A stretch of DNA of 63,453 nucleotides, filler included, from Sphacelaria rigidula (lineage: Eukaryota): NCBI GenBank assembly GCA_964200075.2. It is 9 parts of 9 records of this genome, joined end to end, with 100 filler letters (N's around TTAATTAATTAA, not from the genome) between each part and the next. Parts side by side here need not be neighbours in the genome. Positions count along the whole stretch, not along the records: positions 1 to 6,962 come from CAXNAA020017184.1; 8 more parts are not named here. One strand, written 5' to 3'. Below, one piece after another: positions 1 to 35,209 of this stretch. Under the pieces are notes generated by a model, which was given only the letters and a program-made list of their open reading frames with translations, was not told the DNA's origin and did not search any database. Numbering within the stretch: position 1 is the stretch's first letter; each line of letters starts with the position of its first letter. Made by a program: the position numbers and the translations under genes.

Positions 1-66
1 CGTACTCATTTGTTACTTGCCTTAGTCGTTTGACCATTGACCACACATCCCTTTCGAGACGGAGCA
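1..66 (-). mobile_element. 3'-end fragment of LINE family A
   Basis: cgtactcatttgttacttgccttagtcgtttgaccattgaccacacatccctttcgagacggagc matches the terminus of the LINE at 2101-2166. A (GGGGT)n run follows at 71-90. Confidence 0.85.
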
Positions 67-540
67 TCGTGGGGTGGGGTGGGGTGGGGGTCTACGCTGA
101 CCAAGAGAGTTGCTTATTTCGTTTGTGATAATGTCAAGGAAAAAGGTTGCAAACGACTGTTTTCGCAAAACCGCAAAAAATACAAATGGCGCCAAAACTG
201 ACACTTTGAGCCCGAAAAACGGCCCAAAGCGTTTCCATATACTGGTGACGTGCTCGACCAGTACAGAACCAAAACCACTCACACATCGGACCTTGTACTG
301 TGTTGTAGCGGAGACAGGTTATCTGCGGATGCCTCGCTTTCTCCCGCAGGTGTCTAAAAGCGATGCGGTATGTCCTGGATTGTTGGTCACCCGTTCGCAT
401 CTTAGTTGCATCTCAGGACCTTCTGGCACACTCAGACAACCATTGAAGCGTTTTACGCCGCCTCTTGATAAAACGAGCTGATCCTTCCGATCTGGGGCAT
501 GTGTTGCTTCTTGTTGGGGCTTCGGGAAATCGTCGTCTCT

Positions 541-761
541 GTTCAGACGTGCAGCCCAACCACGACACAGGATTCAATTTCGATTTCCGATTTTCGATTG
601 TCGATTTTTCGATTATTTACTTTTGCTGAAGGTGTCGTGTCTCACGGCGTGTCAATTTGCGTTCAGTATTGGCAGAAGGGTGGCCGCGTGCGTGTCAATT
701 TCGACCGAAAGGGTGTCATCGCTGACCCCCATATGTGGGTGTTTTCGGCGCACGTCTGACA
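541..761. mobile_element. Possible small MITE
   Basis: Inverted ends tcagacgtgc (543-552) and gcacgtctga (750-759) with further imperfect pairing, plus internal ttcgat repeats. No TSD established. Confidence 0.35.
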
Positions 762-2075
762 CGAATCGCACTGTTTCTTGCTGGATCCAGACACGATTTG
801 ACCGACGCAAAGCACGATGTGCTCAGCTGATCGGCAGCTACGGCTTGCGCGATGTGTCTCTTGTTCGCGGGTGCAGTGGGGCTCTCAGTACCATGTTTTG
901 TGCTGGATTCTGCGTCACACCTTGACATGTGCCTCTGTGGTTACTACGTTTATGTTTCCCTCCGAGCAAACAGAGTGGTGGTGTGCGCAAACGACTTGGA
1001 AAATCCCAGGAGTAACCCTCGAAATCTGTTAGCGCAAATAGATAATTATTTTCGGTCTTCTTGGCGGATGGTGGTGCACCTAGCCATCACAGGTGAACAT
1101 GTTTCGAGCGAACAGATTTCCCAGGGATGTACGTTACCCATGACCGGTAATCAGCAGTCGGTTACAAAACCCACGATAACATGCCGCAGGCCAGGCACTG
1201 ATTTTCTAGCATTTATCTGGTCAACTTCCAATAGCATATATCACCTGCACTATCATTTGACACGATGCGTACCTACTGAAGTGGACGGCGAAGTAAGAGG
1301 AGAGAGATAGGGGAGAGAGGGGAGAGAGGGGAGGAAACACGAACATCAGGCCCGACCTTTCTTCGCCCGACATCACGACTCTGTGGAGTCAGATGGGTAC
1401 TTCGCTAGCGGAGATAATGGCGTCGGCTGGAATGATTTCGATGATGACATCTTTCTTGGGAGTCAGAGGCGTTTGATTCGTGTATCATTGTTTTAATGTT
1501 AGCCCGTTTTAGATTAATGACGGTTAAGGGAGATAAATCATGGCGCTCGAAGTCTTTTTTTTTCCGGTACATAAACTTGATGTGGATCGCCAAGTCAGGA
1601 GACGGGCTGGATTTTACTCGTTCCGTTACATTCACTTGACATGATCCTGCGAAAAAATATCAAGAAGAGCTGCACGCAAGATATCAATCTTGATTTTATT
1701 TCGGTCTTGTCCCATGCCAATGCGGAAAGACACGAGAGGTGCATTGCACGCTGCTCGGGCCTTATCACTCAAAGCTCAAACCTACACATGGGTCAGCTAG
1801 TTACACAGTCGCACTCTTCCACCATACAAGCTACATCTGCACAACGATCATCAATCGAGAGACATGCATTAATAAACATACATGTCAACGGTAAGCAAGA
1901 AGCTTCCGTTGTCAGCCCTTCTTCTGTTCTTCGGGGGGGGGGGGGGGGGGGGAGGTCATTCTTTTTTTTCTTTTTCTGGTTGGTGTGCGGCTACCCCCCC
2001 CTCTCTTTGGACTGGCNNNNNNNNNNGTCAATGCCTGGGAGTGGTCGCTTTCTGCTTCGGTGTTTTCGTTGTTGC

Positions 2076-5000
2076 GGGGGGGGGGGGGGGGGCCGGTGTC
2101 CGTACTCATTTGTTACTTGTCCTAGTCGTTTGACCATTGACCCCGCATCCCTTTCGAGACGAAGCACCGTTCCTACTCCTAATAGAGACACCTCCAACAT
2201 TTGGGTGCTCAGTACGCTTCTCCCGTACATTACACAAAAACCTTCTATATATCTTATCCCCGTCCTGTTTTGCCGTCTGTGGCCACCATTTATCTCCTAG
2301 TGTAGCCATCGTTTTTTCCCTACTGTCCAATGCATCAAACGATTTCATGCCATCTTCGTTTACGTCCCGCATTTCCCCCTCTACCACGTCCTGTTCCTCC
2401 TAGTGTAGTTCACATTTTGCCACTATATGACTTCTGCTCCTTATCACTTTGCCACAGGGACAGCTCTGTGCATCTTCCTCCTCCTCCTCTCGACGACTGG
2501 TATACGCCATTCTTCTTTCAGGCAGGTCTCGGTCCCCCACCCTAAATTTCAGTTTCATATTTTTCGCAGTGTCCATTGGGCCATGCAAATATGCTTTCAT
2601 CCCTATCCTTTCTCTCAACACCCCGTATATCTTCAGGTGTTCTTCCTCGTCTGCTTCGAGTCTGAGCGCTCCTTTTTCCTTTATTTCGATCATATTTCTT
2701 ACTCTTGTCTTGTACCCCACGCCTTCATCTAGGGACAGTATTTCATCTTGGCTTCCTCCTATCTCCTTCCATGCTTTCTCTACTTCTCTATCCCACCTTA
2801 TTCCAGCCTCCCCTTTCGTACTTTCTTCCATCAAGCCCTATCAACTATAGCTGGCAATTTCCTTCCCTGCATGTTTTTTACGCTGTATTTCCACCTCAAT
2901 TTCCTCATGTATGTTTCTTTTAAGTGAGTAGTGTCTCCAACTCTGCTCTCAATGCTGTATTACTCGTCGTTTTCGAGCATCCAAGTACTTTTTAAGCTGA
3001 TGCCAACTGTATTGTTCGTAACTTCTTCACCAACTTCACGTTCCACCCCCACACTTCTCCTGCATATTCCAGCTTTGATACGATCACGTTCATCAGGATA
3101 TATCTCTTGATCCTAGTGTCTAGGCGCGGGTCTCTGAGGATCACGTCTATCCTTCCTACTTGTGCCTTACCCTTTTCTGTTACTTTATTCATGTGTGCAT
3201 CCGAAGAACAGTTTTTTGAGATCTCTACACCAAGATATGTATACTATCTACGATCGGCAGTTCCTCTTCTACCCACTTCCACTTGAACTCTACCGGATTT
3301 TTTCTCATCTTCGTTATAGACGAGTACCGCGCAATTGTTAACATTCGCTGTTATTCTCCACTCCCTAGTGCGTTTTAGAGCCTTTTCTATTTGTTTTTGT
3401 GACACTTCTGCTATTCCTCAAATCCCAACAAAATCATTTGCGAACATCAAACTTGGTATCACATCTTCACCCACCTCGACTCCTTGCTTTGCTGCTTCTA
3501 TCGCTGATTACTATTATTATTTAGGTGATATCAGGTCATTAATAAATATCTTGAACAAAGTGGGTGATAACGTACATCCTTGTGTAAAATATCGAAATAT
3601 TTCGATATCTCCCCGTCTAGCATAATGGCACTTTTGGCACATTCTGTCTTCTTCACCATTCTCTACATCTTTCGTCTGATCCCAGGTTCGCACAACTTTT
3701 TCCACGACCTATTTCTCTATACTGTGTCATAAGCCTTTTGCACGTCCAAACATAATCAGTACGTTGTCAGCCCGGTGTCTTTCCTACCTTGAATAATCTT
3801 ACCTAGTGTGTACACATGATCTACGCAACTACGGTCTGGTCTGAAACCTGCTTGTCCCTCGCTGATTTTTCGTCATTTTCTAGCATCGTTCCTACTCCAT
3901 CATTCAGAATCTTACGGAACGGTTTCTCTACCGTGCTCAGTAGCGTCATCCCTCTATAATTCCCTGGGTCAGCCTTGTCTTCTTTTTTGAAAAGGTTGAC
4001 GACTCCTCCTTCTCTCCACCTCTTGGGCTTGTACTCGTTTTCCCAGATCCAGTTGTACGGCATAACCATCATGGTAATCATTCCTCCCCTCCCGTACTTC
4101 AGAAATCTACTCACTATTCCGTCTGCCCCTTCTGCCTTCCTGTTCTTGAGTCTAGCTACGCACTTCTTTACTTCGTCTCTGGTAAATTCTCTCTGCAATT
4201 CTTTCGAGCCACTATCCTCCCGTTTTGACGTCTCTACATTTGCTTCTGCCCACTCGGTGATCTCTTTCTCGAAATCCTTGTCGAACTTCGTGTTAGTTTT
4301 TGGTGTTTCTAGTTAACGGTAATGCTTGACTGGCACTTCTCTCTTTCCCTTCAAACTACAGTGTTATTCCTTTTCGATAATATAAAGGCGGTGTGTGCCG
4401 CAGAATATGTACCTTCTAGTAGATACTGTCATATTCCGAGGTTTCAATTGTCTGAGCCCAAGACTGGACATCGTCACGGGAAGAGGGGTGGGTATTTCCA
4501 GCATCAAGAGCTCGCCTCACGGGCAGATTGCGTATGTGGAGGAAGCTGCATCACTTACGAGGTATGTAACAGCATAGATTACAAGCGATTTCTACTGAAA
4601 AATCGTGCCGTCCTGATAGTACACGACGAAGTTCGTGGAGGGTTATGTACATGCGGGCCCCACCTCGTGCGCACTGGTCTGAATACATATGATACAGGAC
4701 AGTACAGTACAGCACATCCACCAACAGATTTCAGTACTGTGCGCAGTACACTTTCTTTGAAGCTGAACAGAAATATCTTCTCTACCGTTGTACATGTCCA
4801 CATATAAAGTTGGGCAGTGAGACCGTGGCTTGTCGCCAAAACATGGCCGAAGTGGAAGTGACGCAATCACCGAAATATTCACGTGCAAAGCCAATGCGGA
4901 GATAATTTAAGTTGACAAGGCTAGAAGAATACCAGTGCAACGCCCAATCTGCCTGCCAGCCTGTTTGCACGGCTGTCCTGGTAGTGGTGGGGCTGTCTGT

Positions 5001-6560
5001 ACCGGGATATCGCCTCCAGTATCAGGTACGCCGGCAAGGGCCCGTCGCGCTACCCACTGGTCGCGCGACAGGAAGTTAACCTTCGACTGTCGACCGTTTT
5101 GGAGCGGAAACGTTCGCCTCCCAACCCTCATATATATAACGGACCATAAACGATGTTTGTTTGCTGGGTTTCTTCGAGCGTTAATCCATAACTGGGCGAA
5201 GGTTGATGACGAGATCGGCAGGATCCATGCATAGTCAGCGTGCTCAACTGCCACTGTACCCACTATAATCGTCATCAGACAGCAGGGTGTTGAAAAAACA
5301 AAAATCGGCGCGCGGTGATTATTCACCATATCGATGCAGACGGGGCCATGAGCGACTTTCCCTGCCGCAGCTGTGACTGTGACACCTTCCTCTAATACCA
5401 ATGTACACGTTCTCCAAGTTTCGGCGTCATCTGAAACGAGGTGCGGATTCTCTTCACGCCTAAGTTCCCAAAACACCGCCTTCATATTGTCGAAAATGAA
5501 TAACCCTGACTACTGACCATTTTACCGTTCTGTGCCCGTAGTGCGGCTATCCCGTTGTTTATCTTTCTCGCCTGTATCCAATAATCTCTTTTATCCCTAC
5601 CCACATTTGTTACATCCCGCCATCGAAATTTTCATTTGTTTTATTTACTACATCTTTCCATACGCCCTTGTTTTTCTTATGTACCGTCGTTTCCACTTTC
5701 TTTCGATCTTTAGTATACTCATCCCATCCCACCGTACTTTTGCTCGATATCCATCTCGCCTGGGACTCTCTTCTTACTCTTACAGCCTCTTTTACTTCGT
5801 CATCTCACTGTTGTACTGTGCATACGATCAGTTCCTTCCCTATGACCTTACCCGCTGTGTTCTTGACCAGCTGCTCTGATCCTTCTACAATCTTCTTTCG
5901 GTATCAACTGTTCCCACGCGTTCCAACAGCTCGGAAAACTTCACTGCATTTTTGGTCATCTCTTTTTGGAACTCTTCTGTTTTTTTTCCATATCTAGCTC
6001 ATAGATTCTCCATTTATACAACTTCCTACCCCGCGTATTTCTTTTAGCTCTCATCTGTCGGCTTTCTGTCTATACTAGGCAGTGATCTGTAATTCCCACG
6101 TCCTCCGGGCATACATGTACTTCCATTTCTTCACTATTTTCATGCTCCACCACTATAAAGTCAAGAACGAAGCATTCTCTCTCGTCTTTGCGGTTTCCAA
6201 TCCATGTCCACTGCGCCTCTGGCTTTAGTACTCTATCGTTCAGCGTCTTCATCTCGGTATTCTCAAGGACCTTGAGCGTTTTCCACCCCATTCGTGTTCT
6301 TATCTTCCCCGTATTGCCCGATGATATCATCCGGTTGGCCTGCTTTTCCTATCCTTGCATTACATTCCCCCACCAACATTACTTCTCGTTGCCTTTTACA
6401 CTCATGTACATCTGCTGCTATTTCTTCAAACCTACGCTGAGTGTCGTTCACCCTATTCTTCGATTCTGGGGGCATATAGATGTTCCCCACGAATAAATCC
6501 TTGGTTTCCCGCTCTCCTGGTACCCTTATCCATATGCTCTCGTCGGATTTCTATACTGTC
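2076..6560 (-). mobile_element. Decayed non-LTR retrotransposon (LINE family A; APE endonuclease + RT + C-terminal CCHC, RTEX/CR1-like), 5'-truncated, interrupted by a DNA transposon
   Basis: APE motifs VGECNARIG, QWTW, LDFIVV, TDHCLV (6070-6490). RT motifs KNRKAEGADGI and FKKEDKADPGNYRGMTLLS (3821-4198), QGCTLSPTLFKIFINDL (3517-3705), LMFAND (degenerate YADD, 3421-3450) and YLGV (~3230). C-terminal CPCG..SHIVAKC (2400-2470). ORF ends GCGVNGQTTRTSNK* at 2106, then a G17 tract on the + strand (2076-2092). Multiple frameshifts and stops. Confidence 0.93.
4359..5508. mobile_element. Non-autonomous TIR DNA transposon (1150 bp, ~36-bp TIRs, 4-bp TSD ACTA; possibly Academ-like) nested in the LINE
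   Basis: Left end cagtgttattccttttcgataatataaaggcggtgt versus right-end reverse complement cagggttattcattttcgacaatatgaaggcggtgt. ACTA at 4355-4358 and 5509-5512. Removing it restores the LINE frame ...KMVSSLKGKREV... Confidence 0.85.
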
Positions 6561-6565
6561 ACACA

Positions 6566-6915
6566 GGGGGGGGAGGGGGGGGGGCTACTAGCATCCTCGT
6601 GGGGTGTGTGTGATCATGATATTGCATGCCATAGTCACAAGACCATCGACCTCGCATCCCTACACAGCCGGGACGGAGCACACCGGGTTTCCGTCGGGCC
6701 AGGCTCGCAATCATCACCAAGCGCGAAGCGCCGTGATGTGGTCGGCGAGTCGCACGAAGGATGAGCCGCACCATGCTCAGATTGTTCGGTCCGAAGCGTA
6801 CCGAGTATCTTAAATATGCATGATAGCCTACAATGAGTTGCTTCATTTTCTGGTATTGCCACTTCCAATGACCGCCACTGGTTCTGCACTGCCTCATGAA
6901 TGTCTCACCATACAC
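6566..6915 (-). mobile_element. 5'-truncated LINE family B copy (ORF2 C-terminus + C-rich tail)
   Basis: Terminus tcatgatattgcatgccatagtcacaagaccatcgacctcgcatccctacacagccgggacggagc is shared with 6938-6962, 13957-14024 and 56054-56112. Body 6760-6910 is homologous to 56493-56640. It shares gacca.(t/c)gacc.cgcatccct...gacggagc with family A. Confidence 0.7.
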
Positions 6916-6917
6916 CG

Positions 6918-6962
6918 TGGGGTGGGATGGGGGTGGGGTGTACTCATGATCATGCATGCCAT
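6918..6962 (-). mobile_element. LINE family B 3' end at contig break
   Basis: G-rich run followed by gtgtactcatgatcatgcatgccat. Confidence 0.7.
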
Positions 6963-7062
6963 NNNNNNNNNNNNNNNNNNNNNNNNNNNNNNNNNNNNNN
7001 NNNNNNTTAATTAATTAANNNNNNNNNNNNNNNNNNNNNNNNNNNNNNNNNNNNNNNNNNNN
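6963..7062. other. Artificial contig linker (N-TTAATTAATTAA-N, 100 nt); identical linkers at 14025-14124, 21087-21186, 28149-28248, 35210-35309, 42271-42370, 49332-49431, 56393-56492
   Basis: The same all-frame-stop spacer recurs every ~7061 nt. Intervening segments are 6962,6962,6962,6962,6961,6961,6961,6961,6961 nt, i.e. length-sorted unplaced contigs. Confidence 0.98.
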
Positions 7063-7469
7063 GGGAGAGATGGGTTGACCCCTTGAGACCACTGACTCAT
7101 CCCGAGGAAGGGGAGGGGTTCAAAGTGTTGGGGGAAAAAAAGAAGTAGATCCCATATATTTGGGCTCCTACAAAAAGAGACCCAGAAACAAGTGCAACCC
7201 CTATTGTAGCATTGCTTATTTCCAAAGTATTAAGGCCTTTGTCGTTGGCCCTTCCCATTTCAGTCCCCTCACCTGCTGCTGCAGTTCGGACGTACACCGC
7301 ACATACTGCACAGTGGTTCTATCCGATAGATGCCACGCCACAACACCGCCAGCTCTATACGTCGGATATAACCATCAATGCAAGTGATTACATTGGCCGA
7401 TCATCAAAACTTAGGATGGAGCTGTCTTCACTGAAGATGTATGGATGGTAACCTGAAAAAAATGAAATG

Positions 7470-7685
7470 CTCATTTCTTCATGTGCTTTGCTTGTGTTGA
7501 CTTTTTGTTACTCTTTTTTTGTCACGACTTAGTCTGCTATGTCGTTCTGTTCGTTTATTTTTTCCCCTTGTTACTTCTTTTCTTCAGAGCGTGTTTCAGT
7601 TTCGTTTTCCTTGGGTACGTCTGTCATGAGGCCGGCTGGACCCCTGGGGGGTCAGTTGAAGTGCGACAATCAATCAGAATCGATC
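7470..7685 (+). mobile_element. Retroposon 3' end with (CAAT)n tail; homolog at 55112-55320 (-)
   Basis: Shared blocks gcttgtgttgac, ttgtcacgac, atgtcgttctgttcg, gtacgtct(g/a)tcatgag and tcagtt..agtgc..ca(a/g)tcaatca between the two contigs. Confidence 0.65.
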
Positions 7686-7716
7686 AGTTCGTATCCACAA
7701 CAATCTTCGAAATAAG

Positions 7717-10467
7717 CAGGGGTCTACACGTTAAACGTGCCACAGCTTTACACGTTGCGTTCACGTTACATTTTGGCCGAAACGTAACGTGAATGTTGAG
7801 GATTTTTAACGTGATGAACGTAACGTGAACGTAACGTTAAAATTTCGAATGAAACGTCAATGTAACATTAATTGTTTTTAACGCGACATCAGTAACGTAA
7901 CGTGAACGTTTGAATGCCCAAACGTTCTAATCACGTAATATGAAACATTTCATGTAACGTGTAACGCCCATTGCACGTAACCCGTGCATGAGACGTCACA
8001 CGTTACACGTAACGTTATATTTTACGTTACACGATACCTGAAACGTCATAAACACGTCACATGCAGTGGTGAAACTTCAAGTTTGCAATGAATTTACAAA
8101 TCCTGGAAGATGGTGCTTCAACAAACACGAGTGAGTTTGAATGACCGTGGTATAGGTATGACACTATTGCAGAACTTTTGCGCTCTCCCCACCACACGTC
8201 ACAATCATAACATCATAGCCATCTCGACCACATCCAACGCTACTTCTTATGGGGGCCCCTTCCGGAACGGCCCCTTTAGGCTAAATGTTCCTATCGCGAT
8301 AGGGAGATTTGGCTCGGATAGCAACGCGATAGCATCGCGATAGAATCGCGATAGAGAGAAATTATATTTTTTTATCGCGATACTATCTGCCACACGATCA
8401 CACAGTGTCTTGCGACGACCACTGGCGACATTAAACATTTTTACGAAGGAATATGTAGGACCAGAAAATTTACCTTAATTTGATTTTTTCTGGTCGTAAA
8501 CGATGCTATCGCGATAGCATCGCGATGGAGAGGAATGGCTTTTTTTCTATCGCGATACTATCGCGATACCACTTTCAGGGTCAAATAGGCCTGAATGGAC
8601 AGTTCCAGAATACGTGCTATACTGTTCTTATGTATAAAAAAAGACGTTATCAGAAAAACCGTTTCTCAACGGTGCGATTTTCCACATAATTTTTCAACGC
8701 AGCCTTTCTCACGTAATCGACGCGCTGTCAAAATTGGAAACGCAGTGCTCATCGTTTTCTATGAGGCGTGTAGGCATAATTTCGAATTCTGGGGCGCGCG
8801 AGACAGACGCAGCACTCTGCTGTCGTGTCGTGGTGTATGGTTCGTATTGACTGTAATATTGTGATTCATTACCTGCGCAATACATGGTGGGCTGCGTGAC
8901 GCAAGACTATCGATATGAACACCGCCTTGCTGTACTGATAACTGACTGTAGAAGTGACGGTTGTGCTTTTCATTGCACGGTAGTACTTGACTAAAAGGAA
9001 AGCACAGACAAGTGTACACACAACAGTACTGTATAGTATGCATTGGCTGTAAACGTTTTCGTGAGATTGAGAGTAGAGCGCTGATTGGGAGTGGCTTTGT
9101 TCATTCGCTTCAACTTAGCCGATTATTCATTCCGTCTGCGCTTTTTCTCCCCTCCATCACGGGCGTGTGCTTAAAGCTACACGTCGATATCCTACTCAAG
9201 GATATCAAGGGCCTCAGTGGCAAGTTACTACAGAAAGGATATTGGGCCTCGTGGAGGGGCATTTCGGGACTGAAACCGGTACTTCACTAATAGACCGCTT
9301 TTCACTCTCAATCGTATCCTCTACTCTCATCCTCACGAAAACCTTGTTTGTAGTGATGGCTTGGCTGGCATCATCACTGCTGTCGCTGCTGCTCGCGGGC
9401 AGTCAGCGAATTGCTTTATTGCCCTTCGCTCGCCGGTAGCGAAATGGCCCTTACCGCTTACCCCCACGAGAACAAAACAGGGCAGGGTTTGTGACGAGTG
9501 CCGTCCGACACTCTATATGCAGGTTGCACAGTAATGTAGCTCAGTTCAGGTCTGTGCATGCAGCGTGTTGGAAATAGCACTCGAATACAGTACAGACTGC
9601 CCAAGCACCCAAGCCCTGTAGACACTACAGCAGTAGCCCCATTGCTTATACTGTGGTCTTGTGTGTACGGTCAGTGCGGTCCTGTCTCTACAAGACTTGG
9701 GTGCGTGGGCAGTCTGTACTGCATCCAGTGCTGTTCGCATCACGCTGCGTGCACAGACCTGAAATGCGAGCTACAATACTGTCTGTGCAAACTACACACA
9801 GAGTGTACAGCAGCACTCGTCATCGACCCTGCCCTGTGTTTTTCTCATGGGGTGAAGAGCTACCGTGATACTGGCGAGCGGATGGCAATGAAGCAAGACG
9901 TTGACTACCCGCGAGCACCAGCGACAGCAGTGGTGATGGCAGCCAAGCCACCCATGGCTGCTATCGTGGGCTGGAGTGTGTGTTGGCGTGCGGCGGGATT
10001 TCAAACGCGTTTTCTAATCACATGAGAAGTCGGTTTTTATCAGAAGACTCGTTTTGTTTTCTAGAGTTCTTTTTATACATGATAACTAGACGACGGGTCA
10101 CCGTCACCGTCACGTACATGGTTACATCAGGCGTTGAACGACACGTTACAAAGCCTTCAACACTAGTGAATGATCCGCGACATGCACAGAATGAAACGTT
10201 ACATTCGAACGTTACACGTGTCAACGTAACGTTATATTAGACGTTACACGTGACATTGAAACGTTTCATATTACATGTAACGAAACGTAACGTGAACTTT
10301 GTTTCACGTCATGAACGGGACGTGAACGTAACGTTAAATTTTCATATGGAACGTTAACGTAACGCTCAAATTTACTTAACGTGACATACATAACGTAACG
10401 TGAACGCTAAATATCTTTTACATGATGAACATAGCGTGAACGTGAACGTGTAACGTGTAGACCCCTG
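7717..10467. mobile_element. hAT-type non-autonomous DNA transposon (2751 bp)
   Basis: TIR caggggtctacacgtt / aacgtgtagacccctg. Perfect 8-bp TSD GAAATAAG (7709-7716, 10468-10475). About 350-bp subterminal zones are packed with acgttac/gtaacgt motifs. Confidence 0.92.
8252..8617. mobile_element. MITE nested in the hAT element (possibly Harbinger-like)
   Basis: Imperfect TIR ttccggaacggcccctttaggcta versus rc ttctggaactgtccattcaggccta. Many internal tatcgcgata palindromes. Confidence 0.6.
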
Positions 10468-10659
10468 GAAATAAGGTTGCATTCCTTCACTTACCGGTAT
10501 AGCTGTTGAAAAGCACTAAACGCGACACAAATTTGGATTCCGACAACCGAAACTTTGGGTCCCTATTACAGGTGAAGAAATCAATCTGGGGAAGTTGAAT
10601 GATAAACAAGGATCAAACGATACCTCGCTAAGATACCGCGAGCTTCACAGTAAAAATAG

Positions 10660-10925
10660 CAAGGGTCGGAGGAACGAATGATTCGCCTGGATATTACTTG
10701 ATTTTAGTGTCATTGGTTCGTGCCGTACGAATCAATTCTTAGGCTTTGTGTTCAGAGTTGCAACCCAGGAACGCGCAGCCCAGGCACCTGGAATGGCGCA
10801 AAAGTTGTGTGGTGACCTTTTTGATCAGCGGTCAAGGTTCATATTTGTTTTGAGCAATCAGGCCTGAAAAATCGTGGATGCTTTGGTGATTCGAACCGGC
10901 GATGATTCGTCCGAACCGTGAAGTA
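10660..10925 (+). repeat. Dispersed repeat family; copies at 26000-26180 (-) and 52770-53045 (+)
   Basis: Shared blocks gttgcaacccagg..cgcagcccag, ggaatggcgca, gcaatcaggcc..gaaatcgtggat and gatgattcgtcc.aaccgtg in three contigs. Confidence 0.75.
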
Positions 10926-11197
10926 TACCCATGCACCAGTACTGCGAGTGGTTGAATACGGCCGTTCGGCATAATGGAACCATGCCCCTACCTCCATGTG
11001 CTTGCCCTCTCCACAAACCCTGACGGAAACGATTGCAGCGCACTCTTGTGCTTGAATAAGATGCCTATACTGTACGGTACTGTTGTTTTTCTTGGGACGG
11101 GATGCGTCTCGTGTACGGTGAAACCCTTACCACTGCTTGTGCAGCACAAGGCTGCCACCTCCGCACGCGGCCATTCGGTTACCCCCATAAAAATCCT

Positions 11198-11560
11198 CTA
11201 CCCCTCTCGAGGGTAAAGTGCCCTCTGGAGGGTATTCCATCCCAAGGTGCGGCGGTCATAAACGAATCCTCTGGAGGGTATTTGATGCTCCAGTGACTTC
11301 TGAGGTCTGAATTCCTCGAGAGTAACAAAAGAAATGGTGCTGTGGAGGGCCGCGCATCCTCCAAATTCCTCAGGAGGATGCGCGGCCCTCCAGAGGCAAA
11401 ATAAACCTCTGGAGGCGTTTGATCCCACCCCTGGCGCTCCGTCTCGAAAGGGATGCGTGGTCAATGGTCAAATGACTAAGGCAAGCAACAAATGAGTACG
11501 CCCCCCCCCCTCTGGAGGGCCGCGTACCCTCTGGAAGCGTTTAAATCCTCTGGAGGCTCG
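11198..11560. repeat. Cluster of CCTCTGGAGG(G) motifs interrupted by a short LINE-A 3' fragment
   Basis: About 8 copies of (c)ctctggaggg in both orientations. Confidence 0.55.
11432..11510 (+). mobile_element. 5'-truncated LINE family A copy with C10 tail
   Basis: gctccgtctcgaaagggatgcgtggtcaatggtcaaatgactaaggcaagcaacaaatgagtacg + cccccccccc, preceded by cccacccc. Confidence 0.85.
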
Positions 11561-11741
11561 AAGAGTTGACCGGAACAGAGTATTTTGGGGGGTAGCCGAA
11601 TGACCGCGTGTGTACAGGTAGTTGAATCATCTTTCAAAGTGGACTTTCGTACAAGAATTATCCCCGAGGGACGCCGATATAGTCATTATCCACAACGTAG
11701 ACGTACCCATGAACAAATCGGAAACGCTCGCTACAGAAAGA

Positions 11742-12096
11742 GAAACTTTTTTTTCGGGGCGGGAGGCTTTTCGTGATTTACACGAAGGCGGTCAACTCGT
11801 CCGAACGGCCGTCACCCCCCCTGAAAGCCCGTGATCTGATAGTAATATTGGTGCAAAAAAATTGAAAATCGATGTAGTCAGTGCAGAATTCTCAGGAAAA
11901 ACGTACCCAGAAAACGATTTGCTTTTTCCCGACACGTTCGGCCGGGTCTTACGGAAGGCGTCACCGGCTTCAAATCTGATCTCGCCAGAATTCTAGTCAG
12001 ATCACGGGCTTTCAGGGAGGGTTACTGCCGTTTCGGACGAGTCAACCGTCTTGGTGTAGTTCACGTAAAAAAAAACGCTCCGAAAAAAAATGTTCC
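11742..12096. mobile_element. Foldback/MITE with ~100-bp inverted arms
   Basis: actcgtccgaacgg..cccctgaaagcccgtgatctga (11795-11840) is inverted at 11995-12045, and pairing extends to the A/T-run ends. Confidence 0.75.
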
Positions 12097-12401
12097 AAAT
12101 TTCACATACATGTTAAGCATACGAGGAACAAACGGAGTAGGGCGAGGAAACAAAAAAAGACGGCAACATAGAACAAGCAGAAAAATGGAAAGGAACCGAG
12201 CGGAGAATGACATTGCTAGTGGCGAAAAATAAGGAGAGTAGAAAACACTCTCGAAAGAGATCGAGAGAGAAAGATATAGAGAGAGACGGCAAGGGATGGT
12301 GGGTGAAGGGCCAAGGAGTGGGCGTGTACAGTACTGAAACAGTATTGCCGGAATTTGGAGCCCCTAGCGATGTGGCGAGAATAGAGTTCAAGAGAAAATG
12401 C

Positions 12402-13017
12402 TAGGGTTGGGGGCTGGACCCGTATCTACTGACAGTATTGCTGTACTGGCAGTTTTCCTGTACTGCGTCAGAGGCTGCCAGTAGAGCCAGTACATAGCCA
12501 TCTTACGTACGTCCTATATTATGCCTCATAAACTACATGGAAACCCACCGGAACTGCGCCGCATGAGAGGCAGGAGAGGGGAGAGGTTGAGAAGAGGGCA
12601 CACACACACACTAGAGGGAGACCACAAAATCGATGTTCCAATATGTAACTAGCAGCAGCAGCAGCCCGCCCGCTTCAGACCCGAGCCCGGGGCCTCAGAT
12701 CCCTAAACCCACCGCGGCCTCCAGCGAATCACGATTGTTGAAGTTTTTTTCTGGGTATACTAACAACTATTTGAAGGAGAAACGTTTTCAAACCCGGGCA
12801 GGCATCATCGAAGTGGCCCAAAATCAACCAAAAAACATGTTCCAGTGAAGCCAAATCGCGTGAAAATACGCCTCCGGCGGGGCCCCCTCACCAGCCGGGG
12901 GGGGGCGGTGGTCGCGGCTTCGCCGCGACACCAATGTACTGATAAGACCAGGTAAGCTGACTGCTCTCCGCAGCCAGTTTACCTGGTACTGGCGCGTAGC
13001 TCCAGTCCCCAACCCTA
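12402..13017. mobile_element. hAT-type MITE (616 bp)
   Basis: TIR tagggttgggggctgga / tccagtccccaacccta. Perfect 8-bp TSD GAAAATGC (12394-12401, 13018-13025). Confidence 0.9.
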
Positions 13018-13079
13018 GAAAATGCGATACAGGAGGACTATACTTTTCGAGAGATCGGGCTAATGTGACGAACATATCA

Positions 13080-13102
13080 GTAATAGTAGTAGTAGTAGTA
13101 GC

Positions 13103-13151
<49 letters not shown>

Positions 13152-13180
13152 ATAGTAATAATAACAATACATAATAACAA

Positions 13181-13211
<31 letters not shown>

Positions 13212-13220
13212 AAGAAGAAT
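13080..13220. repeat. Compound microsatellite (TAG)n-(AAT)-(AAG)n
   Basis: Read directly from the sequence. Confidence 0.95.
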
Positions 13221-13788
13221 AACAAATAATAATGATAAATAGTGATGATAATACTCTTTGGCAATAGGGAAAGCAGAAAGGCAGTGAGAACACTTCCAAG
13301 TCGCGCTGAACAAGAGGGCGCGAGCAATGAGTAAAAGAAGAGACCATTAGATTTTCAACATGGGTTAGAAGGGAAGGATGGAGAATGCGCACTACCAATG
13401 GAATGCCGAACCCAAAAAGCAGCCCTCGGGTGAACGGAGGTAAGGAGATGCAGGAACAGAGCAATACTACGGTAGGGGCTGCACTTTTTGTTTCTGGTTC
13501 ATGGTGTTTGCACGGAGGGACAGTTTCGTGAATCAGCATCACATTCAGTCTTTTTCGATAAAGTGATGCCGATTCACAAAATGATCCGTGCAACACCCCG
13601 AGCAGCCCCGAGAAACCTTTTCGCTGAGAAAGTGCAACCCCTACCGTAGCATCACTCAACAAGTGAATGCCCTGAAGGGAAAGGGGAGGGAGAATACCGG
13701 CCCAAAGCAAGAAGACCGGGACCAAACTAGAAGCGGAAATAATATCAAGCAAGGGAGAATATAAGTAAAAAACGACGGAGAGAGAACA

Positions 13789-13947
13789 ATGGACGAAAGG
13801 AAGGTGGGAAGGGGTTCGATTAAGAAGAAGCCGAAAACAGGATCGTGGAACGTGTGTAGATTTACCACCATTGAGCACAGAAGACTAGAAATACCCGAAG
13901 AAGTAAGTAAACGCGACCTAGATATAGTGGGAATCCAAGAGTTATGA
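13789..13947 (+). pseudogene. N-terminus of a LINE ORF2 APE endonuclease (truncated)
   Basis: Translates as MDERKVGRGSIKKKPKTGSWNVCRF...LDIVGIQEL*, with the canonical (S/T)WNV and D-I-x-x-x-QE motifs. It is cut off by a family B LINE end. Confidence 0.8.
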
Positions 13948-13954
13948 AGAAACC

Positions 13955-14024
13955 AGGGTGCGCTCATGATCATGCATGCCATAGTCATCAGACCATTGAC
14001 CTCGCATCCCTACAAAGCCGGGAC
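13955..14024 (-). mobile_element. LINE family B 3' end at contig break
   Basis: gggtgcgctcatgatcatgcatgccatagtcatcagaccattgacctcgcatccctacaaagccgggac. Confidence 0.75.
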
Positions 14025-15129
14025 NNNNNNNNNNNNNNNNNNNNNNNNNNNNNNNNNNNNNNNNNNNNTTAATTAATTAANNNNNNNNNNNNNNNNNNNN
14101 NNNNNNNNNNNNNNNNNNNNNNNNATGATATGTCAGCATTACTGTAGCAGGGCCGTGTTGCATTCGTGTCTCCCGAAAGGCAGAAGCCGCCACGGACAAA
14201 ACTACCAAAGCAATATATTACCGGTAATCGAGGGTCTCCCGCACACGACTTGAGCGGATAAATGGTTGTCAGAAAGGAGTCTCGTCAATTTAATAATGGT
14301 CCTTATTAAAAAAATTGTTTTAACCTTTCACCCGTTTTCGTTCAGGTTTCATCATCTAATGCACAAATCCGGTTGGTAACTGCCCCAACCATGTTTTAGT
14401 TTCCGTGTTCTCATTGATCTTTTCGAGAAACTGGAAACACGGAACACTTACTCATCTTGTTTGACCTTTACCATGTCGCCGTCGAGAGAGCGCTTCAGAC
14501 GCGAGTTCGTGAGGTCCAACAGCTGCTCTTCGCTCAGCGACCTTCGTTTGTTGTTTGAGATTCATTCCCTTTCCTCATTCTTCTGTTTTCTGCCTTTCTC
14601 GAGTTCTTGTCGCGAGTGTTATTTTCATCTTCTTTACTTTGGGGACGTCAGCTTGTCACCACGACTACGGCTAGACTCCTCTGGAATCAGTTAGTGTGCG
14701 ACAATAAATAACAAAAACTCATCTCTCAGTTGAGCAGTTTTGCACACAGTGTGTTTTGTTTTCACTCACGCTTTTTCACTAACGGCGCGACACGCGGGTC
14801 CGCCCGAGAGAAACCGTACTAGTTGTATAAAGGGATTCCCCATATACAATGTAGATGACATGCAAACCGTTTCACATTTTCATCGTCTCGGCACAGTTCA
14901 GTGTAAGCTCGCGTGCGCACAGACAAGCGGCTGCCGCGGTGTGGGTGCAGGTGGCGCCAAGCCTTGCGGGCTTAGCATATCGCTGGCAGCAGGTTTGGTG
15001 TTTGTTCACGTGCGCTCATGTGTGTGGCTGGGATACAACGGTGACTTCACCTTGAGTGCCAAATCTAGTTTTGGCCCGTCCCGACTTAACCAGTACAAAT
15101 TGATCGAGCTCCACCCCGGGGGTTCCTTC

Positions 15130-21086: not shown

Positions 21087-22580
21087 NNNNNNNNNNNNNN
21101 NNNNNNNNNNNNNNNNNNNNNNNNNNNNNNTTAATTAATTAANNNNNNNNNNNNNNNNNNNNNNNNNNNNNNNNNNNNNNNNNNNNAACCGAAGGCGCGC
21201 AAAAAAAAACGGTAACCGGATTGCCTAGCTTACGCAGTGAGTGGCGTGTTTTAGAGCATCATCGCCAACCGACGCCAACCGGGGGGGGGGGAGGGGGGGG
21301 GAGTATATTTGGCCGTGCTCGGTTCGAGCACACGTTTTGTCGGCTGTCGCGCACAGAATTTCGAGAAAATTGAAAAAAACTGAATCACAGTACTGTTGGC
21401 CGCACCATGAATACCTGAAAATCGCGTAAAGATGTGTTATAAAATTGTCGATCGTTCAAGACTGGGTTGATCGAACGAAAATAGCGAAGAACCAGAACCT
21501 GGAGTTGAGTACTCATAGGACCCTCGACGACAGGTCAGCTCGAAAGGCGTTGGAAGTTGATCTTCGAGGGGTTTTTTTCCGGAATTTGTGCCGGATGCCA
21601 ACATACCCACATCTCCATACTATACGACCAAACGTTCACCCTGAGAAGCCTTGGTAACCGGAAAGGGTTAGGGTTAGGGTTGATCTCATACCATCACTTC
21701 CATAATCCTCCACAAGAACAGCCAGAACTTACGTTCATGCCGGTCTTCTCCACGAAGGGCGGCCCGGAAAAGTGGCTCAACGCCTCCCGCTTCGCACAGG
21801 TTCTGCACAGCTACATCGCTAGCCTGTTTCCGCACAAAATATCTGAGACGGTCAACGGGATAGCTGGCGGCGGAGTTTCCAGCTGTCATAGCCGTCCGCT
21901 CTTGTATGCGAAACACAATACCACCCGCTTGATGCCCTAGAGACGACTCAGCGAGTTCTCGGGGTAGACATCGCCGGTTACGTTGAACCGCGTGTGATAG
22001 GAAAAACGTGCACCCACGTAGAAGGTTATGGACCGGCGACACGATTTTCTTACGACAGTGATCTGCACCTTTCTTGCTGGCAAACTGTGTGGTACTGCAC
22101 TTCAGACACAGGGAATTCCCCGTGTGTGGCAGCACGTACTGTCGCGCACGAACACAGCTTGAGGCAGGGCATACTTCACTTACAGTGCCTGAAGAACAGC
22201 CTCACATATGCCGTACGTACTAGGGGTTCAACTACGCATCTCGTAGCAAGGCATGTCTCACCCGGGTGATGCTGCAGAGACAGCTCAACGCGTTATCCCG
22301 CAACTCTTCATCAGTTGCACTTTCGTGAAGCTGGTCTGGCTGAGGATCTACAGTGTCGCCAGTGGCGACGGTGGCGTGCTCAACCACCAGGGAGTTGTGA
22401 AGAATTGGCCAAGGAAGCGAGATTCGCTTTGAAAACGCGATCGTCAGCAAAATCCGAATACATCGGATTCCGGCCAGCTCCCTACAAAGCTCCAGATCGT
22501 CGTGAAGACCCACTGCCAGAGCTTGTAATACGTGAGCGCAACCTATTTTTCACGATAATATTCGCACACGCAGTTAGTGA

Positions 22581-24822: not shown

Positions 24823-24853
24823 GGGGCGTACTCATTTGTTGCTTGCCTTAGTC
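24823..24853 (-). mobile_element. Very short LINE family A 3' fragment
   Basis: gggg + cgtactcatttgttgcttgccttagtc, with a G7 run a few bases further on. Confidence 0.7.
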
Positions 24854-24878
24854 ACCACAGGGGGGGTGATAATAATAC

Positions 24879-32846: not shown

Positions 32847-34902
32847 AACAGTTATGGGCGCACCTGACCCCCAAAAATGAGCTCATAAAGTGTCACCGAC
32901 CAAAAGCATGAACGGACCGGAGATGTCGTTCATCCTCTGACTATGCACGCCGCAAAATCCCTCCAAGTACTTTTGATTCGAGTAGGGTTTCCATTCCACG
33001 CTTTAGAAGTTTTCTTACTCCGGAGGACGAATAACGGCGGGGCTCGGCTACTCACCGGCGTGTATTTATCCATGCTACTATTGTACAGGTTGGTTTTACC
33101 CAAGACGTTACGGTGATCGAGAAAATGGCAAAAAAAACATTTTTGTTTTTACTTATTTCGTTATAAAACTCGCATCCTGATTACATAAAAAAACTCAACC
33201 CGTACAATTGTCGCTGTCGTCTTGGCGCAGATGATGCAAAAAGTCGCATCCCAATCGATGATCGTGGCGATGAGTATTCTCTGAGACAGATTGGGCTGTG
33301 ATCGCAAACACGCACCTCCAACCCTCGCCGGTCTCCACAAAACGCGAAAACCACACCCCTGTCTAACGGCCTCGGAATAGATGACACCCATGAATGACTC
33401 TTGTTAGTGCATATGGTTGGTACATCGGATATGGGGAATGTTGTCGAATTTAAACCTTCGACCGAGCCCCCAGAAGAAAGAATCATCTTCGCGACCTCGC
33501 AGCAGCGCAGAGAACAAATTTTGACACTGGCCCAAACGAAGGCATACCGAGAACCACCGGGCAAGGCGGGTGCAACGTGTTTCGTAGGCGAAGGATGCGT
33601 TGCCAGACCTCAAATTAGCGCCCCAGGCGCCGATTCAGACAAGAACGCGTTCTGGGCCGCTACTGTAGGAGAATGCTAGGAGCACAGCCCCCATGAAAGA
33701 TCCTGATTTCGGTTTTCACACCAAGATCAAGATTGACCAACTCACGCTCCCGAATGGGAAAGTATACTGCGCCATGACGACACAACGGACAGCATGAAGT
33801 CGTCGGCCCACTTTCGCTGAAGCCACATGGCACCGAAGCCCCAATCATGTCTTTCAGTGGACCCACCCGTCCTGAGACACGCACCTGTTGTATCGGCAAT
33901 GGTGAGTGATGGACGACCGTTTGTTTTCATTCCCTCTTGCAAAACAATATCTTTGGAGTCCGATGAACCCCTAGACCGCGAGGGTAGTCCATCTGGACCA
34001 TGAATACATTTTTTTGAAGTGAAATATGATGCCGATTCAGCATGTGACCAACCGTCGCGGTCAAAGGGTCAATTAATATCATACTCATGAAATGAAAAGC
34101 CATGCCCACGGAACAAATATACTTGACAAGGCGAGTCGTTCATCCGACAAAAGCTGTGGAATGATGGCAGCCATTAAATGAAGTACCTCAAAACATGATG
34201 ACGTTGTGGACCAACACCCGCCCAGCCCACATTACACACCTGGTGACTCATTGTTCTCCACTCGTCTGTGTAAGGGCCGTCCCCGTTGAAGTTCATCAGT
34301 ACATATGGCTCATTTTGGCCCATTGTCGATCCGTACCCCCCCCCCAAAATGGTTCAGCTTGCTGGTTTCAGTTACTGGCGTTGGGCTACAAATGTTCATG
34401 GTTGGTATTACTCGATTTTAGTGTTACAACGAGAATCGGAATTTGAGTAGGGCTGACGGTCCCGTCTGGTCCTCGGGTGCGCACAACGCGTTTTCGTTGA
34501 AATCGGCGCCACAGAAGTCGATTTGGGGTCTACCAAGGCCCCACTTTCTTCAGGGAATGTGTGTACCGCCCTTGCCCAAGTGTTCTCGATGTGATTTGGG
34601 TTGGTTCAACCCAATCAGCCTCCTTGCATGCCGGGGTATCGCAAGCGCGGGCGAAAGGCGATGCAGTGGCATGTAATATATAAGGAACAATGGAAACGGT
34701 AGGGTTCTGATTCTAGATGGCAGTCCACTTTTTTTCGATGTCAATTTTGGATCCATACCGTCCTCTTCCGATGACGTAAGGCGTATTTTACTCCACGAGC
34801 CTGAATAAGCCCCAGAAGTCGGTGTGTTCGTGTCTGTTCGTGGCATTGGTCGGTGTCACTTTTTTTGCCCATTTTGGGGGGTCAGGCGCGCCCATAACAG
34901 TG
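32847..34902. mobile_element. TIR element ~2.05 kb with CACTG-like end (Transib/CMC-like), non-autonomous
   Basis: Left gttatgggcgcacctgacccccaaaaatgagctcataaagtgtcaccgacca versus right rc cactgttatgggcgcgcctgaccccccaaaatgggcaaaaaaagtgacaccgacca. TSD not preserved. Confidence 0.7.
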
Positions 34903-35098
34903 AATCTACTCCACATTTGTTTTACATATTGGGGGGTTTGTTCAAGGTACGGGTCGTTGCTGAACTTTGGTATACCGAGAAATATGCCCCTCTATGTTCT
35001 GCGCCAAATCGCAGCTGCTCTTAGGAAGTTTTCAGATTTGTTGTCCTTCGTGATGCAGGACATATCTGATTGTATACAAGACGCAGGAATCATCCTAC

Positions 35099-35209
35099 GA
35101 TAGAGGGGGGAGGTGTACTCATGATAGAGGGGGGGGGGCTTACTCATTTGTTGCTTGCCTTAGTCGTTTGACCATTGACCACGCATCCCTTTCGAGACGG
35201 AGCCGGGGG
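35099..35209 (-). mobile_element. LINE family A 3' end with a 12-nt family B insert in its G/C tail
   Basis: gatagagggggg [aggtgtactcat] gatagagggggg gggg c ttactcatttgttgcttgccttagtcgtttgaccattgaccacgcatccctttcgagacggagc. Confidence 0.8.

Follow-up and report, generated by a model that had tools for sequence, protein, structure and literature searches.

A C-tailed LINE of probable RTE-X type and its short partner element in Sphacelaria rigidula

Described relatives of the element

LINEs of the RTE clade carry a single APE+RT ORF, a very short 3′ UTR and simple-repeat tails in place of poly(A), and have many SINE-like dependents. In another group of LINEs (Kibi, Koshi, Mino, Waldo and Dong/R4), the tail is the simple repeat of the target, and the primer can pair with the repeat at the 3′ end of the RNA. 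Homopolymer-C tails are, to our knowledge, rare among LINEs, and we know of no study of their origin.

The closest described systems come from Ectocarpus. In the curated Ectocarpus TE table (Genome Biol 2025, PMC12477816 Suppl. 3), RTEX-1_Ec32 is annotated as “single EN-RT ORF; (C)n 3'” with a “C-rich” TSD, RTEX-2_Ec32 as “(C)n termini/TSD” and RTEX-N1 as “60 bp 3' end 83% RTEX-1/RTEX-2; can be present in tandem”; for RTE-1/2_Ec32 the tail given is (CAA)n. The RTEX elements have their best blastp matches to RTEX-4_NV and RTEX-1_BF (PMC12477816). The main text of that paper has 0 occurrences of “C-rich” or “homopolymer” and leaves aside the C tail and its origin; in a Saccharina paper RTEX-1 is named and tails are not mentioned. 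A search of the literature on poly-C/G-tract tails of non-LTR elements and on TPRT returned nothing relevant. Poly-C in Blepharisma belongs to a DNA-transposon TIR. The only description of a C-tailed LINE that was found consists of comment cells in the supplementary table (PMC12477816). A preliminary description of our locus knew of no earlier account of such a LINE; the table provides one.

The element analyzed here lies in a 63,453-nucleotide stretch of the S. rigidula assembly, spacers included (hereafter, the window). Given the (C)n 3′ ends, C-rich TSDs and RTEX-N partners of the Ectocarpus table, it belongs to a known type, and by its sequence it appears to be a new family of that type. 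Membership in RTE-X is indicated by the matching published description and by unnamed Ectocarpus proteins homologous to that of the element; among named proteins, too, the closest are those of Ectocarpus, which are 59% identical and end in a similar peptide. Compared by description, the element shares with RTEX-1/2_Ec32 the single EN-RT ORF and the (C)n 3′ end, and may share the C-rich duplications; both are the LINE group of highest abundance and include numerous short copies. It differs in species and family, as the protein identity reflects, and in an apparent abundance that is far higher in S. rigidula. At a probability of about 0.7, we consider the feature under study to be the 3′ end of a decayed, 5′-truncated RTE-X LINE of brown-alga type that has its own C tail and is probably primed at G runs.

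With the RTE clade at large the element shares the single APE+RT ORF, the very short 3′ UTR, a simple tail other than poly(A) and the presence of dependents, but its tail unit is one base (C) and its protein has, besides an N-terminal extension, a CCHC motif in the C-terminal part. As in microsatellite-targeting LINEs, one simple repeat makes up both tail and target; those LINEs belong to clades Tx1/L1, R1 and R4 and use di- to tetranucleotide repeats. L1-type elements resemble the mechanism proposed below in their target-primed logic, by which a homopolymer tail base-pairs with the target at the nick (T's on poly(A)), and share with our element the frequent 5′ truncation; L1 RT is the nearest solved relative, for the RT domain only (E 7e-21). 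In contrast to L1, the homopolymer here is C, poly(A) is absent, and the 3′ ~60 nt are common to the LINE and its dependents, which suggests that the 3′ end is recognized rather than the tail alone. The S. rigidula genome shows this type of element at extreme abundance, with nested chains, a short dependent and a minimal 3′ module, and is therefore a good system for three questions: what an RTE-type RT recognizes, whether tail-target pairing guides integration, and to what extent a transposon can shape the G/C tracts (G-quadruplex/i-motif) of a genome.

The focal copy and its setting in the window

The window consists of nine whole contigs (four of 6962 nt and five of 6961 nt) separated by N44-TTAATTAATTAA-N44 spacers, and the ends of its pieces are therefore real contig ends. 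Elements of family A (the LINE) and family B (its partner, see below) contain 6 of the 18 contig ends. Termini or their C runs lie at five of them, namely both the start and the end of contig 1 and the ends of contigs 2, 5 and 8; the start of contig 9 is inside a B body, not at a terminus. The placement of contig ends in termini thus stands, and their number, first given as four, does not. Short-read assemblies are broken by C-tailed elements, as is seen here. Such elements also appear in bacterial MAGs as eukaryotic contamination; a DNA pattern scan of the terminus gave two true matches and one chance match in metagenome genome contigs and 0 matches in viral contigs.

The focal copy is on the minus strand. 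Its ORF ends in a TGA at 2106–2108 (tca on the plus strand), after which come a 5-nt 3′ UTR, GTACG (2101–2105), an 8-nt linker (2093–2100) and a C17 tail (2076–2092; G17 on the plus strand). The original reading of a stop, ~13 nt and then C17 is thereby borne out. The linker is atypical for A termini: in the consensus of 55 X6 contigs (Logan) the C run follows GTACG directly, and other Logan contigs have 1–5-nt deletions at 2094–2097. A 10-N gap sits 50 nt from the G17/C17 run.

The body of the LINE occupies 2106–6565 and is 5′-truncated and frameshifted; it was identified by tblastn and by Pfam analysis of an intact relative. With P0001 as a query, tblastn covers residues 258–1360, and DNA homology extends to about residue 248. 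The copy is interrupted by a secondary insertion of ~1.15 kb at 4355–5508, which is not LINE sequence and has 36-bp inverted ends (4359–4394 and 5473–5508). The joint 4354→5509, without the insertion, is present in 11, 9, 6 and 3 Logan contigs of X1, X2, X3 and X6, so other copies of the LINE lack the insertion. Full-length matches without interruption are carried by L001 and L025, which align from L001:121 and L025rc:287 at 82%; further up the similarity is weaker, and both contigs stop short of the 5′ end of the complete element.

The C-terminal peptide of the window copy (...NGQTTRTSNK*) corresponds to ...NGQMTKASNK in three intact relatives, which are 1360, 1328 and 655 aa long; P0001, P0002 and P0004 agree in stop position and C-terminal peptide. 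The focal TGA is therefore the true end of the ORF. In intact relatives (P0001, L001, L025) the stop is followed by GTACG, as in the window copy, and then by C8–C13. Pfam analysis of P0001 revealed Exo_endo_phos at residues 170–392 and RVT_1 at 740–989, i.e. APE N-terminal to RT in a single ORF; Pfam searches with individual fragments of the decayed window ORF gave no matches. The ORF of the element (~1360 aa) comprises an N-terminal region, the APE endonuclease, the RT and a C-terminal CCHC motif. Since it runs to 5 nt from the end of the element, there is practically no 3′ UTR, and the initial identification of an APE-RT LINE with a near-absent 3′ UTR holds on the intact relatives.

A profile search for the terminus (cut-off E≤4e-4) found nine copies of A and B types in the window. 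Besides the focal terminus (profile match 2102–2171), family A is represented by five copies. A 69-nt mini-copy on the minus strand (1–69; match 2–71) is placed so that the contig starts exactly after its ...GTACG, and a (CCCCA)-type run (70–90) precedes it in the sense direction. Another 69-nt mini-copy (11432–11500, plus strand; match 11431–11499) lies between a C-rich run (11424–11431) and a C10 tail (11501–11510). The remaining three are on the minus strand. A 33-nt copy with an internal deletion (24827–24859; match 24828–24855) has a C4 tail (24823–24826) and a C7 run (24860–24866) on its 5′ side; a 66-nt mini-copy (35139–35204; match 35141–35205) has a C10 tail (35129–35138) and, at the end of contig 5, a 5′ C5 run (35205–35209); and a terminus cut by the end of contig 8 (56362–56392; match 56363–56391) has a C11 tail (56351–56361). 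The mini-copies share one 5′ end, a hot spot at 66–70 nt.

The short partner and the shared 3′ module

Family B had been taken for a sister LINE. B1 (6585–6917, minus strand) is instead an element of ~333 nt, non-coding, with no tblastn match of P0001 in 6585–6917. The last ~52 nt of B are ~80% identical to the 3′ end of the LINE (in B1 the similar part is ~50–60 nt, the extreme end being degenerate), but indels put B out of the A reading frame; with no protein likeness upstream, this means that the 3′ module is conserved as nucleotides and not as protein. As no likeness to LINE protein was found upstream of the last ~60 nt, family B is a non-autonomous partner that has only the last ~50–60 nt in common with the LINE. 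The idea of an earlier in-frame stop in B was dropped, since B has no LINE-like coding sequence upstream. A search (window 1–14024) for the 5′ head of a strict SINE, which comes from tRNA, 5S or 7SL RNA and carries a Pol III promoter, gave no Rfam family at gathering score, a threshold that a diverged head may escape. RTEX-N1/N2_Ec32, to which B is likened by description, are short non-coding elements of 188–607 bp whose likeness to the LINE is confined to the ~60–100-bp 3′ end (83%); their duplications are C-rich, and they can occur in tandem, as B2 and B1 do. They differ in that 66–70-nt copies of the 3′ module alone are also present here.

The B copies are all on the minus strand. B1 (profile match 6610–6678) is followed by a C10TC8 run (6566–6584), which is both its tail and the 5′ junction of the focal LINE; the LINE begins directly at this run, the two overlapping by 2 nt (CC). 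At its 5′ end, B1 adjoins the interrupted C-rich tail (6918–6938) of B2, whose terminus (6939–6962), cut by the contig end, is too short for the profile. B3 (13962–14024; match 13962–14026) is cut by the end of contig 2 and has a mutated end, ..GAGCGCA, and then only CCC. B4 is a 10-nt copy (35114–35123), likewise too short for the profile, with the tail CCTCCCCCC (35105–35113). B5 is a ~62-nt copy with the tail CCCCTCCCTCCCCC (56041–56054), the whole spanning 56041–56116 (match 56056–56114), and has no C run at its 5′ junction. The 5′ part of another B element lies at the start of contig 9 (56495–56657; 77% to 6762–6909), where a C-rich run (56646–56657) precedes it in the sense direction.

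In stringent-type LINEs an RNA structure serves for recognition of the 3′ end. Here, RNA folds of five termini were no more stable than those of shuffled sequences (z 0.36 to 1.24). A 5-bp stem, TGGTC/GACTA, is invariant, with variable loops and no compensatory change.

Tails, junctions and the origin of the C runs

At least four C's are found within 10 nt after 14 of the 16 termini with a visible 3′ side, and poly(A) after none, in agreement with the initial statement that no copy has an A-tail; A runs in the 40 nt downstream reach a length of 6 at most, never directly beside a terminus, so an L1-like poly(A) tail was not seen. Four of these 14 termini come from other public assemblies (L001 C10, L002 C8, L022 C10TC9, L025 C13). 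The five window A tails with a visible 3′ side are C17 (after the linker), C10, C10, C4 and C11. Tails are pure C in 8/9 A cases, while B tails are C-rich and interrupted (3/5 in the window). In X6, a G run of at least 20 (plus strand) lies just beyond the A end in the 55-contig consensus, and the same is seen at the B end (53 contigs). Among sequencing runs on record as RNA, none was found with the element.

C runs also adjoin 9 of the 11 visible 5′ junctions, against a background of 0.032 (binomial tail for 8/10, 4e-11); two junctions have none. The G/C runs that had been listed at 5′ junctions (71–90, 11424–11431, 24860–24866, 35205–35209 and 6566–6584) are all present; the “linkers” there proved to be mostly LINE sequence. 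The only clear target-site duplication is TCTAT around B4 (35124–35128 and 35100–35104). If C's are counted it extends to CCCCCCTCTAT, (C6)TCTAT, in which case the nick would fall inside a G run. A look-alike of the B4 site without interruption is present at L001 5008–5025. In three other short copies (11432, 24859, 35204) the two C runs are followed by a few bases that differ from each other. The element tends, as far as sequence can tell, to insert at C runs; since no true empty site was seen, this preference is read from the junctions only. On contig 1, B2>B1>LINE forms a nested head-to-tail chain. Joints from 2161–2167 to 6929–6936 occur in all four Logan runs (2166→6935 in 21, 24, 31 and 3 contigs), and head-to-tail chains are common.

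In the mechanism that we propose for a C-tailed, G-run-primed LINE, the RT would recognize the last ~60–70 nt, common to the LINE, family B and the mini-copies, together with the C run. The endonuclease would nick the bottom strand inside or beside a G run; the G's exposed there, paired with the C run that ends the RNA, would serve as primer for reverse transcription. With such pairing the tail would merge with the target and the duplication would be C-rich. Each insertion would bring a new C run and old tails would become landing sites, so that nested head-to-tail chains such as that on contig 1 would arise and many long G/C runs would be added to the genome.

A different source of the C runs, which we regard as unlikely, would be untemplated synthesis: the RT or a nucleotidyl transferase would tail the RNA or cDNA, 5′ C runs would be template jumps onto C-tailed RNAs, and chains and mini-copies would be single-event chimeras. 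Such jumps would fit the frequent B-then-A head-to-tail joints with recurrent break points at 61–67 nt, the common 5′ end of mini-copies, as if a discrete short template had been copied to its end, and tail lengths from 4 to more than 20. However, C runs also adjoin the focal copy of 4.4 kb and the copy of 33 nt, whose break points are unrelated; upstream of the 5′ C runs at 11424 and 24866 no other element's terminus is present; and template-free addition of C is without direct evidence.

In another reading, of about the same low probability, the element would have no tail of its own and would insert site-specifically upstream of or inside genomic C runs, the “tail” being a target duplication or read-through, as in microsatellite-specific LINEs. 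The C runs on both sides of 9/11 copies, the duplications labeled “C-rich” in the Ectocarpus table (PMC12477816) and the many long G/C runs in the window that have no recognizable element are all compatible with this. Yet B5 and L022:349–683 have a C tail and a 5′ junction without a C run; composition follows the family, A tails being pure C and B tails interrupted by T/A; and the CCT that precedes the C's in the B4 tail cannot come from the target. The tails of B5 and the L022 copy and the different composition of A and B tails show that the C tail is borne by the element.

Abundance, inferred at first from four contig ends, is confirmed by the 81,086–113,424 Logan contigs per DNA run that lie on contig 1. 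The same ends are found in independent public assemblies and in Logan contigs of four runs and are therefore not an assembly artefact. The possibility that the G/C runs arise in sequencing or assembly, for instance as two-color poly-G at fragment ends, is negligible: several contigs do break at runs and there is the 10-N gap near the focal one, but the runs are internal and flanked left and right by unique sequence, are G or C according to element strand at a constant place relative to the stop codon, and recur in four other assemblies as well as in those Logan contigs.

Returning to the C-tailed LINE with G-run priming, a further-reaching version is possible, though we doubt it. In this version the last 66–70 nt and the C run would be a self-sufficient mobilizable unit, the smallest LINE-dependent retroposon, whose insertions create the next landing sites; it would propagate itself, build chains and have seeded most long G/C tracts of large brown-algal genomes. 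If true, the tracts seeded by this mini-unit would be potential G4/i-motif DNA.

The window contains 20 G/C runs of at least 8 nt, compared to a mean of 1.2 and a maximum of 5 in 200 first-order Markov simulations. By the profile search, ~13 of 18 long G/C-run loci have no recognizable terminus beside them, so either some of the runs in the window have another source or orphan tails are frequent. At 34336 and 53835, GTA lies directly 5′ of a C-rich run, a hint of 4-nt copies too weak to be counted.

The 3′ end of the LINE

On the minus strand, the focal LINE copy (2106–6565) ends in ...AAA TGA GTACG, followed by an 8-nt linker and a C17 tract (G17 at 2076–2092). Upstream of this stop lies a decayed LINE encoding APE and RT, which contains frameshifts and stops and reaches ~6565; its DNA homology extends to a C10TC8 run (6566–6584), with which it overlaps by 2 nt (CC). 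A search with the best RT fragment of the copy retrieved intact relatives of 1360, 1328 and 655 aa with Exo_endo_phos and RVT_1 domains, and the window copy covers residues 258–1360 (tblastn). All three relatives terminate in ...NGQMTKASNK, while the window copy terminates in ...NGQTTRTSNK followed by TGA at 2106–2108. The matching peptides therefore mark the true ORF end and leave a 3′ UTR of 5 nt. Thus, the ORF reaches the end of the element, where a variable C-rich tail follows; the preliminary description was right to note an unusual, genuine LINE end with an almost absent 3′ UTR and a C17 tract closely trailing the stop.

A ~1.15-kb element with 36-bp inverted ends (4355–5508) is a later insertion into the RT region of this copy. 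It is absent from other LINE copies, whose contigs pass directly from 4354 to 5509 in all four public sequencing runs compared. Its summed depth is 100–300 times that of single-copy flank, indicating a moderately repeated, DNA-transposon-like element.

Residues 1–160 of the 1360-aa relative form a conserved N-terminal region ahead of the endonuclease without a Pfam match; it could be an RNA-binding part fused to the ORF. The LINE coding strand carries a G8–G10 run in the endonuclease region in three public contigs (L002 315–324, L003 313–322, L001 1216–1223), which could serve as a landing site for antisense insertions.

C-rich tails in the window and in other assemblies

Nine separate pieces make up the window; four measure 6962 nt, the other five 6961 nt, and N44-TTAATTAATTAA-N44 spacers lie between them (6963–7062 and seven more). 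Since the sizes fall by one base, as in a size-sorted list, the piece ends are real contig ends; the source is a fragmented eukaryotic assembly. Scaffold gaps of 10 N occur at 2017, 26067 and 51034, and long trinucleotide repeats at 13079–13238 and 55700–55800. The organism has spliced genes: a PP4/PP2A-type phosphatase motif is encoded by an exon at 54129–54230 (minus strand).

A terminus profile built from 13 termini matched nine copies in the window at the cut-off of E≤4e-4, with the next matches at E>2; two more copies (24 and 10 nt) are too short for it. Where the 3′ side of LINE-type (A) copies can be seen, their tails are C17 (after the 8-nt linker), C10, C10, C4 and C11. Ends of family B, a short element with a LINE-like 3′ end, read ...GAGTACA followed by C-rich yet interrupted runs; B3 has CCC only, and at B1 the end is degenerate and C10TC8 lies 15 nt further. 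As noted earlier, none of the window copies ends in an A tail; within 40 nt, A runs reach at most 6, and the longest does not adjoin a terminus.

A protein-guided scan of metagenome contigs yielded a full-length copy ending in GTACG+C10 (L001) and another copy ending in GTACG+C8 (L002). Scanning prokaryote genome contigs with a DNA pattern gave two true matches, one ending in GAGTAC+C10TC9 (L022) and the other a full-length intact copy ending in GTACG+C13 (L025); in one such MAG there were also two diverged termini, L023 and L024, with C-rich runs behind them. These four loci sit on contigs C325, C146 and C272 of G001 and C43 of G002; eukaryotic contigs with this LINE family in bacterial MAGs are binning contamination. 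Upstream of the L025 copy, the first ~230 nt (reverse strand) contain tandem units of ~65 nt that include T runs and may be 5′ UTR monomers, and a (GGGGT)-like stretch lies on the same strand downstream of the C13 tail (60–94). Counting all termini whose 3′ side can be seen, four or more consecutive C follow within 10 nt in 14 of 16.

Logan contigs of four public runs were aligned to contig 1. The single-copy flank (96–1917) was matched by one contig per DNA run at a depth of 25–53 with 0–4 differences, so the same organism is present in those runs. The LINE and B parts of contig 1 were matched by 81,086–113,424 contigs per DNA run, and summed word depth in run X1, which is not a copy number, was 2.6 million in the terminal bin versus 29 in the flank. 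The family is very abundant, as the preliminary description had supposed. In run X6, the loose ends of 55 contigs just past the A terminus, and of 53 contigs just past that of B, gave a consensus of at least 20 G on the plus strand. Recurrence of the same ends in other assemblies and in Logan contigs shows that the C runs are neither chance nor an assembly artefact.

Family B, 5′ junctions and a proposed priming mechanism

Family B had been taken for a sister LINE. In the 270 nt before its terminus, no similarity to the LINE protein was seen. This body is found again where contig 9 begins (77%) and in L022 (78%), and two copies have a common 5′ boundary with a C-rich run ahead of it. Family B is thus non-coding, ~333 nt long, and a partner rather than a sister of the LINE. 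Its last ~52 nt are ~80% identical to the LINE coding end with indels that break the frame, which indicates conservation at the nucleotide level; the module shared by the two families is the 3′ ~60 nt. No Rfam family was found in contigs 1–2, so a Pol III-type head of B is not evident.

Most 5′ junctions lie at C runs, and chains of copies are common. A run of at least four C occurs within 12 nt upstream in 9 of 11 copies with a visible junction, against a window background of 0.032 (binomial tail 4e-11 for 8 of 10), in agreement with the earlier description of junctions beside G/C runs. The apparent short linkers that follow the C run belong mostly to the element itself. The L022 copy and B5 lack a C run at this junction. 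The tail moves with the element, because tails occur on two copies that have no C run on the 5′ side, and each family has its own tail composition.

One clean target duplication, TCTAT (35124–35128 and 35100–35104), surrounds the 10-nt B copy with tail CCTCCCCCC; L001 continues after its tail into sequence similar to this site, but uninterrupted. With the C's counted the duplication would be CCCCCCTCTAT, which would place the first nick inside the bottom-strand G run. We propose that the endonuclease would nick in or beside a G run and that the exposed G's would base-pair with the C tract in the RNA, priming reverse transcription; the resulting target duplication would be C-rich. The proposed priming logic is that of L1, with C in place of A, and the proposed 3′-end recognition is RTE-like. 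Upkeep or extension of simple-repeat tails is usually explained by slippage.

Besides priming, the points of interest are chains and a 66–70-nt unit. Four A-type copies (1–69, 11432–11500, 35139–35204 and L024) start within 4 nt of one another, 66–70 nt from the end. Eight of the 15 listed Logan-contig joints, from all four runs, lead from 2161–2167 into the B tail at 6929–6936, in the order B end, four or five C, A module. The common start and the joints point to either a strong stop or template jump there or an amplified composite element. At four sites (35090–35101, minus strand; L001 5013–5023; L024 ~7797–7808; window ~6593–6605, minus strand) a C run is succeeded, at once or after up to 7 nt, by a motif resembling ATCGTAGGATG, and at two of these sites a further C run comes 7–8 nt later. 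The motif may mark where a third family of elements ends.

G/C runs and related families

The window contains 20 G/C runs of at least 8 nt versus 1.2 expected. Spreading of G runs by the LINE, as suggested earlier, is plausible; tails of recognised copies make up only five of ~18 long-run loci. The others, among them G20 (1933–1952), G11AG9 (21281–21301), C13 (29017–29029) and G14 (51315–51328), have no recognisable link to a terminus, so LINE spread does not explain all runs here. At 34336 and 53835, GTA directly precedes a C-rich run; these may be copies of only 4 nt.

Among named proteins, those of Ectocarpus sp. CCAP 1310/34 come closest (best 59% identical, with a similar terminal peptide); farther matches are invertebrate elements. 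According to the main text of a 2025 Genome Biology paper on Ectocarpus transposons (PMC12477816), RTE-X and its dependents are the most abundant families. Its Supplementary Material 3 gives RTEX-1_Ec32 as "single EN-RT ORF; (C)n 3'" with "C-rich" TSD, RTEX-2_Ec32 as "(C)n termini/TSD", and RTEX-N1_Ec32 and RTEX-N2_Ec32 as 607 and 188 bp; in the main text, where neither 'C-rich' nor 'homopolymer' occurs, the C tail goes unmentioned. Compared by these published descriptions, the window elements agree on every point, with a C-rich target duplication as a probable one. Homology and the matching features would assign the window LINE to the RTE-X clade. On these entries the kind of element, of which the preliminary description knew no account, is already catalogued: a (C)n-ended LINE is known in Ectocarpus, and the window LINE adds another member. 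A 29%-identical relative in a public contig (L004, 2490–2520) ends in TGATGAGT (TGA TGAGT) and then (CT)n; it keeps the terminal TGAGT but has another simple-repeat tail, showing that simple tails vary within the wider group.
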